A stretch of DNA of 64,000 nucleotides from Gammaproteobacteria bacterium (lineage in GTDB: Bacteria; Pseudomonadota; Gammaproteobacteria; JAJFKG01). The translations under genes were made by a program, and so were the position numbers. Shown here piece by piece: positions 57,652 to 62,715 of the stretch. The notes beneath the pieces are model-generated. The model had not been told where the DNA came from. It was given only the letters and a program-made list of their open reading frames with translations, and did not search any database. The first letter of the stretch is position 1; each line of letters opens with the position of its first letter. The stretch lies in the NCBI GenBank assembly GCA_965116795.1, contig OZ220716.1:394503-458502 (forward strand), read 5' to 3'.

Positions 57652-58530
57652 TCACAAATATTCAGTTGCACGTGTACAGAATGCTAAAAATGATACCCAT
57701 TCTTGAACATCAACTGCAAATGAAGCATGTGCTGTATCATAAAAATGATAGTAATAAGTGTGTTTGCTGTAAATAACGTTTACTTGCTCATTTGACCAAG
57801 CTGGAGGAATCTGATCAATTGCTATTTTCAAGTAGAATGGTCTAGCCTGTGCATCAAGTAGCAAATAGCTTCCTTGTTGATCTGTTAAGTAAAATTCTAC
57901 TATGTTTTTATCAAAACAAAGTGTCTGGAAAAAATCAACAAACGCGATGTCACTTAAGTAAGGCAATTGTGTCTGCAATCGCCGCACAATAGGTAACGAT
58001 GACTGCTGAAAATAATTATAAGCTAGTGTGGTAATCGCTGTTGTTAACTTTATGTAAGTAGTAGGTGATGCATCTTTTATAACATATCCATCAATGACAC
58101 CGTTGCTTAATGCCTGTTTAGCATCGCTTAATTCATTGGGTGTAATTAATAATAATTTTTTGTAGGTTGTTTGCCCGATTTGTTGGCAAAATTCGATTGC
58201 AGAATCAGGCATTATCATTGTATCGATCACGATAACAGGGATTTCCTCAAAGCGATGAGATGATGCTAATTCTGTTAACAATGAGGTCGCCAGCCCATCT
58301 GTTTGTTCTGCTTTATTGTTAACAACATTTTTTTCTAGCCAAGTTTGCTGTCCTACATAAGGCACATAACTGCTTTGTAGAAATTGCATTGCTTGCGTTG
58401 GTTCATCAAAAAGATGATAAAAAAACTGTGGCAGCAATTTATTGCGTAAATTGATCAGATCACGGTACTTTTCACCGATCAATAGTACTGTTCCAGCAAC
58501 ATAACATGTTGGCAGCACATAATTTGTCAT
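57652..58530 (-). CDS. LqsR-like response regulator, degenerate receiver
   Basis: LPTCY.., F.EP..A..F, RFEEI.V.VID, KKLLLI, G.IDGY..K, YFQ..S..IVR.L, F..FF, IVEFYL.D..GSYLLLD all resemble Legionella LqsR as recalled; SD AAGGAG before ATG 58530. Confidence 0.75.
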   Translation of the reverse strand: MTNYVLPTCYVAGTVLLIGEKYRDLINLRNKLLPQFFYHLFDEPTQAMQFLQSSYVPYVGQQTWLEKNVVNNKAEQTDGLATSLLTELASSHRFEEIPVIVIDTMIMPDSAIEFCQQIGQTTYKKLLLITPNELSDAKQALSNGVIDGYVIKDASPTTYIKLTTAITTLAYNYFQQSSLPIVRRLQTQLPYLSDIAFVDFFQTLCFDKNIVEFYLTDQQGSYLLLDAQARPFYLKIAIDQIPPAWSNEQVNVIYSKHTYYYHFYDTAHASFAVDVQEWVSFLAFCTRATEYL

Positions 58531-58583
58531 GCAGACTCCTTTCCTTGGAAACAAAAGTAACTTAAACAATTCTCATATTGCAT
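58527..58583 (-). CDS. Putative 18-aa leader peptide coupled to the lqsR-like gene
   Basis: MQYENCLSYFCFQGKESA; its TGA overlaps the regulator ATG (ATGA). Confidence 0.3.
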   Translation of the reverse strand: MQYENCLSYFCFQGKESA

Positions 58584-58744
58584 AACTCGTGCGCTGGAGG
58601 ATTCTACGAATTTTCATTTTGAATGTCACGTGTTTTTTTAACGAAAAAAATTGGCTTTGACTGTAAAAAAACATGGCAAATATCTTACAAAACACAGTGA
58701 CTTTTACGACTATTTAAGTCAATTAACTTGCGTATAATGGTCAC

Positions 58745-58816
58745 CGTCAAATTGCATAACTCCTTGTATTTTGTGCCAGCGCGTATATGACTCCCCGTTT
58801 TATACGCGCTTTTTTT
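58745..58816 (+). ncRNA. Putative ~70-nt sRNA, copy 1
   Basis: TATAAT at 58733; anti-SD-like ACTCCTT; hairpin AGCGCGTATA/TATACGCGCT + T-run terminator. Confidence 0.5.
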
Positions 58817-58949
58817 ATATGGTAAGAAAAGGTTTCAGTATTGATCAAATGGGTAGTCATTGCTGCGTACAATACAAAGAGCTCATCACTCACAATAACT
58901 TAAGTCTTTTACTACTGTGCATGCTATGTAACTTGCTTATAATGGTCAC

Positions 58950-59021
58950 CGTCAAATTGCATAACTCCTTGTATTTTGTGCCAGCGCGTATATGACTCCC
59001 CGTTTTATACGCGCTTTTTTT
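58950..59021 (+). ncRNA. Putative ~70-nt sRNA, copy 2
   Basis: Identical to copy 1; TATAAT at 58938. Confidence 0.5.
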
Positions 59022-59238
59022 ATTAGACTCATTCATCAACTTTATCTACTCAGCCGACCATTACATTACCAAAAAACGTCAGCGTTGAACTGCAGAATTT
59101 AGATTCAAGCAATGTGTATATATTTATTGGTTGGGACTTTGGAAAAGTGGGCGCACACTAATATTGTCAAGCATGCGCCACTATGGAAGATTGTTTAATA
59201 TGAATGAGCAAACTTTGGTGATTGCTCACAGTTGAAAA

Positions 59239-59550
59239 TTAATATTGACGTTCACGACCGCCACTACGACGACCACCGCGACCACCACCGCCGCCACCAG
59301 CATTTTCACGTGCACGGTCAACTTTCAATTTACGGCCTTCGTATTCATAGTCATTAAACTGCTCTAATGCAGCTGTCGCACCTGTTTTATCAACAAATGT
59401 AATAAAGGCATAGCCTTTTGAACGACCTGTTTCGCGATCACTAATCAGCCGAACTTCTTGTACTTCGCCGGCTTTACCAAATAGTGACCTCACATCTTCA
59501 TCAGTCGCAGAGAAAGGTAAATTCCCAACATAGAGTTTTGCAGTTTCCAT
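59239..59550 (-). CDS. RRM-domain RNA-binding protein with Gly/Arg-rich tail
   Basis: RNP2 LYVGNL, RNP1 KGYAFITF, GGGGGRGGRR tail; SD AGGAG. Confidence 0.93.
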   Translation of the reverse strand: METAKLYVGNLPFSATDEDVRSLFGKAGEVQEVRLISDRETGRSKGYAFITFVDKTGATAALEQFNDYEYEGRKLKVDRARENAGGGGGGRGGRRSGGRERQY

Positions 59551-59930: not shown

Positions 59931-59950
59931 AAATCGATGTGGATGGTATA

Positions 59951-60763
59951 ATGACAATTAATACTCTTACCCAAACCGTATCACCTACCCACTCATTTGG
60001 GGCTAATTATCAACCACGTCGCTCAGTACGCCATCATTCATACTACCGCTTCAGAACATACACGGCTAGCGCTGGCAGTAATCAACTGGTCATAGCAGCA
60101 ACACCTTTATTTACCCTGATGATGGTACTGCAATACACTCAGTACGCAGCTAATGCAACACCACTACATCAACAAATAGTACATGAAATAAACGCCTTTG
60201 AAAGTGCAGCACTGGCGCAAGGTTATTCAGATGAATTCGTGATGGTGGCACGCTATGCATTATGTGCAGCTGTTGATGAAACCATGCGCATTACTCAATG
60301 GGGACAACAGCAGCAATGGGATCAATGTAATTTACTGTCTACGTTTCAACAAACGCTCTCTACCAATGATTGTTTCGTTTCCATTTTAGACCAATTACGT
60401 GATGATCCAAAACACTATATCGATATTTTAGAAATCATGTATCTGTGTTTAAGTCTTGGTTTTGAAAGTCGTTACCGTGAGCAACACCACGATAAGATTG
60501 AACAGTTAATCGATGAATTATATCGTCTGATTTGCAGCCAGCGTGGTCGCATTAAAAAGCGTTTATCTGTTTGCAAACATTTCACTAAGCAAGTTATCAA
60601 AAAACCTCGTGGTATTTCACTATGGCGTTCATTGATAACGGGTAGTATGTTAATTGGCATACTATATACAGTGTTTACATACACCACCTTTACGATTACT
60701 CAGCCGCTAACTCACACATTACAACAACTTACTGTGCATACCAAGATTGCACAGAGTAATTAA
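59951..60763 (+). CDS. dotU: DotU/IcmH (TssL-family) secretion system membrane protein
   Basis: N.LV.AA.PL, ARYALCA..DE, W....LL..F, LEIMYLCLSLGFE.RY; C-terminal TM. Confidence 0.88.
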   Translation: MTINTLTQTVSPTHSFGANYQPRRSVRHHSYYRFRTYTASAGSNQLVIAATPLFTLMMVLQYTQYAANATPLHQQIVHEINAFESAALAQGYSDEFVMVARYALCAAVDETMRITQWGQQQQWDQCNLLSTFQQTLSTNDCFVSILDQLRDDPKHYIDILEIMYLCLSLGFESRYREQHHDKIEQLIDELYRLICSQRGRIKKRLSVCKHFTKQVIKKPRGISLWRSLITGSMLIGILYTVFTYTTFTITQPLTHTLQQLTVHTKIAQSN

Positions 60764-60765
60764 AC

Positions 60766-62715
60766 ATGGCAAAAAATCAAAAACGCATGTTAATCATGCA
60801 ATCATTAAGTTTTCTATTGTTATGTATAACCATCATGCTAGTCTGGCATGTTGGTGATCAACTGCATATTGCTGGGTATACCCCATTAGCAACATCATTA
60901 AGTCGCACAGTTGTTAACAGTCTATTTATCATTTGTTGGTTATCACTTATTTTAAGAAAAACCAAACAACCCTTTATTTTTTCGTCACGCCAAGCTAAAA
61001 CCAGAGCAATGTTAACATTACTGAATCACCGATTTTATGGTGCCATTCATTTTTTAAAACGCACATCGACAAAATCGAAAACACAAACAAATCATTTATA
61101 TGACTTACCTTGGTATTTAGTTATCGGGCCACCTGGCTCTGGTAAAACAACACTGCTAGCAAAATCAGGTTTATCATTCTCGCTAGCCAAACAACAAAAT
61201 AATATTCAATCAACAGAATTGTGTGACTGGTGGGTAAGTCGTGAAGCTGTGTTTTTAGATACAACTGGACAATTCTGCCCAACAACGAAATATATGCTGC
61301 ATTATAAAATACTGTGGCATCGCTTATTACAACTGATTAAAGAACAAGGCCAGACACGCTTAAATGGTATCATATTAGTGTTAGATTTACCGGGCATCGC
61401 TAAATTACCACACAACAAAAAATTATTGCTATACCATAATATACGTTCAAATTTGGCTGTTGTTAAAAAATGCTTACCAACTGAAATTCCTGTGTATTTG
61501 ATATGTAATCAGTGTGACCGCATTCTCGGTTTCCAGGAATTTTTTGCTGACCTTGGTAAAGAAGAACAGCAGCAAATATGGGGAACAACATTGGCTAACT
61601 CGTATAATATACGACAACGCTCATTATTAACCATTGTAAAAAAAGAATTTTCAGCATTACTTATGCGATTACATGAACGCTTACTATGGCGTTTACATCA
61701 TGAACGCAACCAACAAACAAGGCTATTAATTAAAGACTTTCCCGTACAGTTAGACATGCTCAGCAAACAAATACTATTAGCTATTAAACAGATGGCTAAT
61801 ACTAGCAAACTATTGTGGCTACGCGGCATTTACTTAACTAGCAGCACGCAAACTAACGATATAGAAGATTATGTATTATCTACGGTGCAAAAAAACTTAA
61901 ATTTGCCAGACATAGCTACTCATCGATTACAAACTGTATCTTATCATCAGCCAACTGCACTTTTTTCTAAACATTTTCTACAACAATTATTACAGCAAGA
62001 TCAACACTTAGTATCAAAGAATAATGCTCACTTAATTAAAACATGTGGACGGCATACAACCATTATTTCTGTTAGCATTATTGTATTTTATTGCGCATTT
62101 ACTTGGTCACAACAATTAAATCAATACAATAAACGTATTGTGCAGATTGAAAAAACACTTGCTAATTACCAAGTGCTCACTGCAATTATACAAAAATCTA
62201 CGCCAACTGATGTCAATCACGATACTCAACAGTCTACTCGTCATAGAGTAAGACTTATTCTACCTGCATTGAATGCAGCACAATCAGCTACAGATATGTT
62301 ATCAACGGTCCAATTAACACGGCTTACACGTTGGCTCAGCAACAATCATCAACAACTGTATGACAATGTACAACAACTCTATCAACAGGCACTGGTACAA
62401 TTACTCACACCAGAAATAATGCATATTGTGTATACGAAATTATTGAATACACATGAATATACATCAGCAGATTTTTACAGTGATTTAGAAGTATACTTAA
62501 TGCTAGGCCAACCCAAACACTTAAATTATAGCCTTGTACATGCTTGGCTAAATGCTTATTGGCAACAATTGTTTCCTGATGATGAAACAATCCAACAACA
62601 ATTAAAGCAACATACCTCAAATTGGTTAGCAGGCACATTAGAACCCATCAAATTAGATGATACGTTACTAGCAAAAATACATGAAGAAATAGAAAAGCAA
62701 CAGCAGAATAGTTAA
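60766..62715 (+). CDS. icmF: IcmF (TssM-family) protein, short form
   Basis: N-terminal TMs, LY.LPWYLVIGPPGSGKTTLL, CDWW, DTTG, LNGIIL, GF.EFF, WG, LRGIYLTS. Confidence 0.85.
   Translation: MAKNQKRMLIMQSLSFLLLCITIMLVWHVGDQLHIAGYTPLATSLSRTVVNSLFIICWLSLILRKTKQPFIFSSRQAKTRAMLTLLNHRFYGAIHFLKRTSTKSKTQTNHLYDLPWYLVIGPPGSGKTTLLAKSGLSFSLAKQQNNIQSTELCDWWVSREAVFLDTTGQFCPTTKYMLHYKILWHRLLQLIKEQGQTRLNGIILVLDLPGIAKLPHNKKLLLYHNIRSNLAVVKKCLPTEIPVYLICNQCDRILGFQEFFADLGKEEQQQIWGTTLANSYNIRQRSLLTIVKKEFSALLMRLHERLLWRLHHERNQQTRLLIKDFPVQLDMLSKQILLAIKQMANTSKLLWLRGIYLTSSTQTNDIEDYVLSTVQKNLNLPDIATHRLQTVSYHQPTALFSKHFLQQLLQQDQHLVSKNNAHLIKTCGRHTTIISVSIIVFYCAFTWSQQLNQYNKRIVQIEKTLANYQVLTAIIQKSTPTDVNHDTQQSTRHRVRLILPALNAAQSATDMLSTVQLTRLTRWLSNNHQQLYDNVQQLYQQALVQLLTPEIMHIVYTKLLNTHEYTSADFYSDLEVYLMLGQPKHLNYSLVHAWLNAYWQQLFPDDETIQQQLKQHTSNWLAGTLEPIKLDDTLLAKIHEEIEKQQQNS

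Follow-up and report, generated by a model that had tools for sequence, protein, structure and literature searches.

The window, a 64,000-nucleotide stretch of a gammaproteobacterial genome (contig OZ220716.1, positions 394,503 to 458,502), contains a gene for an orphan regulator of the LqsR family that diverges from two closely spaced copies of a predicted small RNA (sRNA) gene. Beyond these copies lies a gene for an RRM protein (Table 1). The genome comprises 2.45 Mb on one contig (G000:C1). The regulator matched PDB entry 6sy9 (E 2e-27, residues 2-234), which we take to be LqsR of L. pneumophila, and this match supports the original prediction of an lqsR-like gene divergent from the sRNA. 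The protein belongs to a distinct orphan clade of 47-57% identity that includes three further orthologues represented by protein sequences only (P0002, P0003, and P0005). The phospho-acceptor Asp103 was invariant in the nine rows of the alignment, and GE/GD replaces the N-terminal acidic pair of the receiver in this protein and four close orthologues, which possibly form a pseudo-receiver clade. None of these five has an adjacent kinase. This genome encodes two other LqsR homologues, each beside a LuxN-like kinase, and a second genome of the same genus (G001) encodes only one LqsR homologue.

Table 1. Features of the locus and related sites. Positions are those of the window unless prefixed with G000:C1.
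Feature	Position	Strand	Remark
Orphan LqsR-family regulator, 292 aa	57652..58530	-	retains the phospho-acceptor Asp; changed N-terminal acidic pair
uORF, 18 codons, overlapping regulator start	58527..58583	-	lacks an SD; absent from the G001 leader
Predicted target site B over SD and start codon (-11..+1)	58530..58541	-	conserved in G001
Predicted target site A (-58..-43)	58573..58588	-	15/16 nt complementary to core; this genome only
Predicted lqsR-like promoter, GTGACA-17-TAGAAT	58601..58629	-	TAGAAT conserved in G001
Conserved upstream boxes (copy 1: CTTACA 58684-58689, CTTTTAC 58701-58707)	58684..58708; copy 2 58889-58913	+	
-10 element TATAAT	58733..58738; copy 2 58938-58943	+	
Predicted sRNA copy 1, ~71 nt	58746..58816	+	UAACUCCU exposed by a 5' hairpin, then a U-rich linker and an intrinsic terminator
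Invariant 24-nt core (anti-SD + anti-AUG seed)	58746..58769; copy 2 58951-58974	+	
Terminator	58778..58816; copy 2 58983-59021	+	covarying stem, variable loop
Predicted sRNA copy 2	58951..59021	+	same sequence as copy 1
RRM protein gene	59239..59550	-	convergent with sRNAs; syntenic in G001
All five sRNA copies	G000:C1 90533+, 453248+, 453453+, 1054092+, 2092705-		
Predicted target, LqsS-like kinase start	G000:C1 2148157	-	rank 9/2086

The lqsR-like transcript is predicted to start near 58594, upstream of target site A, and not downstream of 58577, a start position that the original prediction had named as damaging to its case. Given the position of the promoter, sites A and B both lie inside the predicted leader. 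The RRM gene (Pfam RRM_1, E 2.6e-24) is present on the other side of the sRNA genes as anticipated, but a role as a dedicated partner was not supported: it adjoins one of the four sRNA loci here and one of the five in G001, and RRM genes were present in 13 of the 20 other genomes examined, never within 1.5 kb of an lqsR homologue. Beyond it, in G001 as well, lie two genes on the + strand (59939-62715): dotU and an icmF-like gene that is short at 649 aa. G001 shows the same arrangement, its lqsR-like orthologue diverging from a single sRNA copy on whose far side the RRM gene lies. This was the sole syntenic sRNA locus (one of four here, one of five in G001), leaving aside one locus for whose flanks the G001 assembly offers no orthologues. 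In six of six outgroups yicC is preceded by rph, so the block of regulator and sRNA genes appears to be specific to this genus and to have arrived at the locus together.

The original prediction described a 95-bp unit duplicated with one mismatch, and both copies were found (58724-58818 and 58929-59023, spaced 205 apart), differing at a single base (58732/58937). Each contains the described -10 element, roughly 70 nt, and a strong terminator, with stems of 10-13 bp (58778-58810 and 58983-59015) that are each followed by a run of 7 T. Folding of the 75-nt sRNA segment gave z = -5.9 relative to 200 shuffles. These promoters and terminators were absent from the output of a consensus scanner for the window because they have no -35 hexamer and a 13-nt loop above the scanner's limit. 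Two details of the earlier description needed correction: the homology runs past the 5' end of the unit for about 40 bp in the form of diverged promoter boxes (58684-58708), and the pair is not merely a twin, as three additional copies exist elsewhere in the genome. In two of four sequencing runs (X2 and X6, from different studies), a 179-nt contig connects copy 1 with copy 2, and a piece of the repeat 86 nt long has about double depth. Given bridging contigs from two different studies, an assembly artefact is an unlikely source of the repeat. The 12-mer said to be shared by the sRNA and the leader, ATTGCATAACTC, occurs three times in the window (58577, 58751, and 58956) against 0.02 expected, and its match at the leader extends to 15 of 16 nt.

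The prediction of a multicopy sRNA gene held on a larger scale, with five copies of the predicted RNA in this genome and six in G001, two of the latter in tandem. A covariance model scored all 11 copies at 82-105 bits and the next match at 29 bits. That match (G000:C1 874775-874845, + strand) lies between genes, downstream of one that is fis-like. The short stretch has a terminator and an anti-SD-like ACCTCCTT and may represent a further small RNA or a 3' end. The 24-nt core, identical in all 11 copies, begins 6-7 nt after the -10 box, and we placed the 5' end of the RNA according to this spacing and the onset of conservation. Read as a target, the core consists of an SD sequence, 2 nt, and AUG. 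It folds as a weak hairpin with UAACUCCU in the loop, where positions are > 90% unpaired. In the terminator, both sides changed in 5 of 13 pairs, although these changes come from two lineages only and are not independent events, and the U-run exists on the + strand alone. The C-rich terminator loop noted originally varies freely among the 11 copies and is therefore not a conserved feature, nor is a functional role for it supported.

Mean identity among copies was 0.83-0.94 in the RNA, 0.43-0.62 upstream, and 0.29-0.34 downstream. This pattern of high, patchy, and background identity indicates constraint on the gene and its promoter rather than a transposed block. Copies were more alike within genomes (0.89 and 0.94) than between them (0.83), consistent with expansion in each lineage separately or with gene conversion. 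The RNA has the features of the Hfq-dependent class of sibling sRNAs, namely its own promoter, a U-tailed intrinsic terminator preceded by a U-rich stretch, and a conserved seed. Hfq was found in three of three genomes and ProQ in none of them. The open frame of Hfq in this genome (G000:C1 850602-850805, L021) measures 176 aa from stop to stop, compared to 136 and 91 in relatives, possibly reflecting an extended tail. The family evidence comes from two genomes that are kin to each other. We are highly confident that the 11 copies are genuine sRNA genes.

We ranked pairing with the core across gene starts from a crude in-house caller (2087 and 1357 genes, with 934 usable orthologue pairs). The original prediction had the RNA pairing with the lqsR-like leader through both a 12-nt match and its SD sequence. 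Both complementarities exist here, but the G001 orthologue leader has neither site A nor the uORF, and only the pairing over SD and AUG is kept in both genomes (site B, AAGGAGUYUGCAUG). Perfect 12-nt matches to the core occurred in 2 of 2086 leaders, site A being one. After correction for accessibility, energies were modest: site A was best at -7.6 kcal/mol, site B of G001 reached -5.0 kcal/mol, and site B of this genome was outside the six best. By itself, site B ranked 96/2086 here (53/367 among SD-matched starts) and 14/1330 in G001. As an orthologue pair, the lqsR-like starts ranked 5/934, or 4/934 in a narrower search interval. In that interval, shuffling the seed everywhere but in its anti-SD part never gave the pair so high a rank (0 of 40 shuffles). 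The core is invariant in both genomes, so there is no sRNA-target covariation to score.

Lending perspective to these ranks, 3 of 27 starts of lqsR homologues in genomes lacking the sRNA equalled or exceeded site B of this genome in pairing, and 1 of 27 beat the G001 site (one of 28 loci was dropped when no start was found). The control starts pair well partly because several LqsR genes begin GGAG-NN-ATG-CAA. Canonical lqsR genes with this start, which is near the seed complement, include L179 (in G056), L186, and L187. The G056 start out-pairs the predicted target, and no sRNA was found in G056. Given this resemblance, we speculate that the seed originated by antisense copying of an lqsR start. 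The start of an LqsS-like (LuxN-like) kinase gene also paired well in this genome, to which the comparison is limited as G001 has one LqsR homologue; it ranked 1/693 at similar SD strength and scored -11.1 after accessibility correction. Its partner lqsR ranked 101, the other lqsR/kinase pair ranked 155 and 1946 (the kinase, of 2086), and the GacA-like gene ranked 630/2086. Overall, pairing suggests that the lqsR-like mRNA is a likely genuine target of the sRNA.

The same ranks bear on whether the siblings are instead broad anti-start regulators with main targets elsewhere, the lqsR-like gene being a mere neighbour across a divergent promoter. Better-pairing genes exist in each genome (by sequence reading, atpI-like, rpoE-like, tig-like, and two arginine-synthesis-like genes), an anti-SD seed suits many mRNAs, and the three control starts above pair equally well. 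However, few of the best matches in one genome were also among the best in the other, in contrast to the lqsR-like pair, which was among the first five of 934, and its leader carries the additional 15/16-nt site here. We consider a purely broad role unlikely. The two arginine-synthesis-like genes (G000:C1 1583936-1585144, - strand, and 1587569-1588453, + strand; L296) belong to one cluster, have a common start-region AAGGAGTATGCA, and were both among the top 15 predicted targets; neither has a G001 orthologue.

A second possibility, confined to this species, is that the uORF acts as a switch, with the RNA blocking its start at site A and thereby uncoupling translation of the regulator. The predicted 18-codon frame exists with its ATGA overlap, and site A, the best site after accessibility correction, spans its AUG. 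Nevertheless, no SD occurs in the ~11 nt before that AUG, and the seed itself dictates an AUG, such that an open frame by chance is not unlikely. Moreover, G001 lacks both the uORF and site A, so the frame is not the conserved part of the module that was proposed, and we judge the switch to be very improbable.

The sRNA promoters combine a -10 box (TATAAT in 10 of 11 copies, TATACT in one) with boxes at fixed distances, and no -35 is conserved among the 11. Nearest the RNA is a CTTTT(A/T/G)CC-like box near -45, followed further up by CTTACA near -62 (an exact match in 7 of the 11) and TACA near -83, and together they likely constitute an activator site. In GacA boxes, the conserved half-site reads CTTACA (PMC7911923). 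Of the palindrome TGTAAG-N6-CTTACA, this half-site is in the fixed place in those seven copies, and in one of the copies the box is nearly complete and in register. The genome encodes a GacA-like regulator (G000:C1 1730228-1730968) scoring 238 bits against a cut-off of 280. A matrix built from the 11 boxes was not specific, placing a csrB-like box in the top 0.2% only (1195/668071; 691/345104). Searching with a matrix of the entire sRNA promoter turned up no further example of this type, so no regulon indicates the activator. GacA/LetA is thus the leading candidate activator, albeit weakly supported and about an even bet at best. The CpxR, LetA, sigma-54, and LuxO motifs do not fit the sRNA promoters: none carries a sigma-54 motif, and the LuxO motif had zero matches in both genomes. 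RpoS and RpoN were present in all genomes checked. Both genomes also have a conserved GGA-rich CsrB/RsmZ-like RNA (G000:C1 ~580780-581060, + strand, L295; G001:C36 ~400-690, + strand) with a terminator and an upstream GacA-like box, matching Rfam RsmZ weakly (21 bits versus a cut-off of 44). The sRNA does not itself qualify as a Csr/Rsm RNA, as the predicted + strand RNA contains no GGA.

The promoters also speak to the Qrr-type circuit suggested originally and to its full form, a closed loop in which the LqsR-like protein would activate the sRNA genes and be fed back on in quorum sensing. The analogy to Qrr is stronger than proposed in having five to six copies and a syntenic copy facing the regulator, and the genome holds two LuxN-like kinase/LqsR pairs, but the closed circuit was not supported. 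Beyond the missing sigma-54 and LuxO sites, no LqsA/CqsA synthase exceeded the cut-off of NF005526, which we take to be the CqsA/LqsA model (best 148 bits versus 428 here; none in G001, which is 90% complete), and 'quorum sensing' is therefore unproven. No DNA-binding domain or family was detected in the LqsR-like protein, and the output domain of LqsR is described as GGDEF-like (PMC10653808), so the protein is unlikely to activate the sRNA. Even with a divergent founder and dispersed copies resembling qrr1-luxO (PMC8043402), such a loop is highly improbable.

Distribution of the sRNA appears narrow, comprising two genomes of one genus. The covariance model had zero matches in a genome of the same family (G002), and the sRNA pattern revealed no further carrier in 399 other genomes of the class (401 scanned), 0/31 in JGI metagenomes, and 0/39 in IMG/VR. 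A DNA search of 41 genomes returned no wider homologues, with a third genome matching weakly outside the unit. Model searches found no homologue in 45 other LqsR-carrying genomes (one match, 24.7 bits) or, unfiltered, at 28 lqsR loci (two terminator-only matches). A 13-mer search of 10 genomes gave two single matches, both at gene starts, and a protein-led locus search was negative. Scanning GTDB with a 17-mer yielded 48 loci but no new carrier: 43 lacked the pair of -10 and U-run, and the five having both (six matches) all repeat G001 copies. These searches are samples that diverged cores would escape. A 292-bp repeat on a metagenome contig (L113/L114), in direct and inverted pairs, contains an 18-nt core pattern lacking a -10 or terminator and is probably unrelated or an assembly artefact. 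The Rfam search suggested originally did not assign the sRNA to a family, as the window produced only four chance-level matches far under the cut-off and eight loci produced a tRNA as their sole match. We found no description of this sRNA family in the open literature searched.

One copy is carried by a prophage. Together with its promoter, it fills a cargo slot between phage tail genes (G000:C1:2092616-2092883, L006), antisense to the tail operon. Nine related prophage segments share this junction of tail terminator and tail gene, of which three are empty, five hold a protein gene (150-1210 aa), and one holds the sRNA. The genome has about 9-13 related prophage segments in total. Prophage genes were not enriched among predicted targets (8 in the top 100 versus 15 expected). 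The cargo slot, non-syntenic copies, and within-genome likeness might suggest that the unit is a small cassette of promoter and terminator, mobile or selfish, and encodes no functional RNA. Against this stand the invariant core, boxes that keep their spacing although the spacers have diverged, compensatory changes in the stem, and the lack of conserved ends or terminal repeats, making a cassette extremely doubtful. Least plausible are type I toxin-antitoxin or opposite-strand peptide genes (Sib/Ibs-like), since the - strand reads AAGGAG-TT-ATG in 11 of 11 copies but with an SD-ATG gap of only 2 nt, followed by polar peptides of 12-31 aa, one out of frame, that are conserved over the first codons only rather than a conserved hydrophobic peptide with a usable SD, and nothing is conserved past the terminator where their promoter would lie.

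Our preferred reading, held with moderate confidence, is that a ~71-nt trans-acting sRNA, present in five copies, represses translation of the lqsR-like mRNA and probably other mRNAs by covering their ribosome binding sites, with Hfq as a likely partner. A common activator bound at the upstream boxes would turn on all copies from promoters with a -10 but no -35. The exposed loop UAACUCCU would then nucleate on GGAGU, the weak 5' hairpin would open, and UGCA would extend the duplex to the AUG. In this genome, the leader would have gained a second, stronger 5' site, most simply through a short direct duplication of the seed. As site A and the sRNA lie on the same strand, a short local duplication could explain the site, and because the two genes diverge, a duplicated seed is automatically antisense. 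Copies would have multiplied separately in each lineage for dose, and the LqsS-like kinase mRNA would be a further target here.

Vibrio quorum sensing runs via multicopy Qrr sRNAs. More tentatively, the sRNA might be an independently evolved equivalent of Qrr on the Lqs pathway: GacA/LetA-induced siblings, derived from an lqsR start region copied in antisense, that silence an orphan, atypical LqsR and an LqsS-like kinase and were multiplied lineage by lineage, one becoming phage-borne. If true, this would add an sRNA layer to Lqs signalling, where none is known, unlike in the related Vibrio Cqs pathway, and the phage-carried copy would raise the sRNA dose of its host. A family of five to six copies, of which the conserved one faces an LqsR-family gene, in a lineage with dotU/icmF and Lqs-type genes would represent a convergent solution. 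It may also capture sRNA evolution in progress, through lineage-specific copy gains, a target site made by local duplication, and a copy as prophage cargo.

Several known systems offer points of comparison. In IstR-tisB, OhsC-shoB, and OrzO-zorO, divergent genes share a short internal direct repeat that pairs perfectly upstream of the ribosome binding site. The repeat at site A is similar, but the target here encodes a 292-aa regulator rather than a toxin peptide, and the RNA is multicopy. In Legionella pneumophila, CsrA represses lqsR translation at the ribosome binding site (PMC5338858). Here, an ANGGA motif falls within site B, and four CsrA homologues are encoded (4, 6, and 3 copies in three genomes), although Legionella uses a protein where a base-pairing sRNA is predicted here. 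The literature searched contained no base-pairing sRNA acting on lqsR, with CsrA alone reported for its translation.

Closest in layout are Qrr1-5 of the Vibrionaceae, which also comprise four to five siblings with an invariant core (here 24 nt in 11/11), including a conserved copy divergent from the signalling response regulator that Qrrs repress. In Vibrionaceae, the copy regarded as ancestral is qrr1, which lies opposite luxO (PMC8043402). The divergent gene here has an analogous position to luxO but is of the LqsR family rather than a sigma-54 activator, two strong sigma-54 activators lying elsewhere in the genome. The sRNA further differs from Qrr in its -10 promoters (sigma-70/RpoS-type) in 11/11 copies, its two hairpins within ~71 nt, and the lack of a detected synthase. 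The Rfam Qrr family had no match in the window even at E 10 and none at gathering score in the eight loci, and we rejected Qrr membership.

LhrC1-5 of Listeria also have five tandem and dispersed copies that target SD sequences, and conserved nucleotides at about -55 to -75 are needed for their two-component activation (PMC4132741), comparable to the boxes observed here. LhrC uses several C-rich motifs, whereas the C-rich terminator loop here is not conserved. The streptococcal csRNA1-5 (Ccn) of the CiaRH regulon similarly occur in two to six similar copies, tandem and dispersed, and combine two stem-loops, anti-SD plus anti-AUG pairing, and an upstream site for a common activator (PMC3091779, PMC4211561). 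The predicted RNA shares the anti-SD and anti-AUG sequence, the two hairpins, and the multiple copies, and its upstream boxes are a likely activator site. Unlike csRNAs, it has no Rfam csRNA match, resides in Gammaproteobacteria with Hfq, and presents its seed in a hairpin loop rather than between stems. While belonging to neither family by its defining tests, the sRNA would appear to work most like the streptococcal csRNAs and to be laid out like qrr1-luxO.
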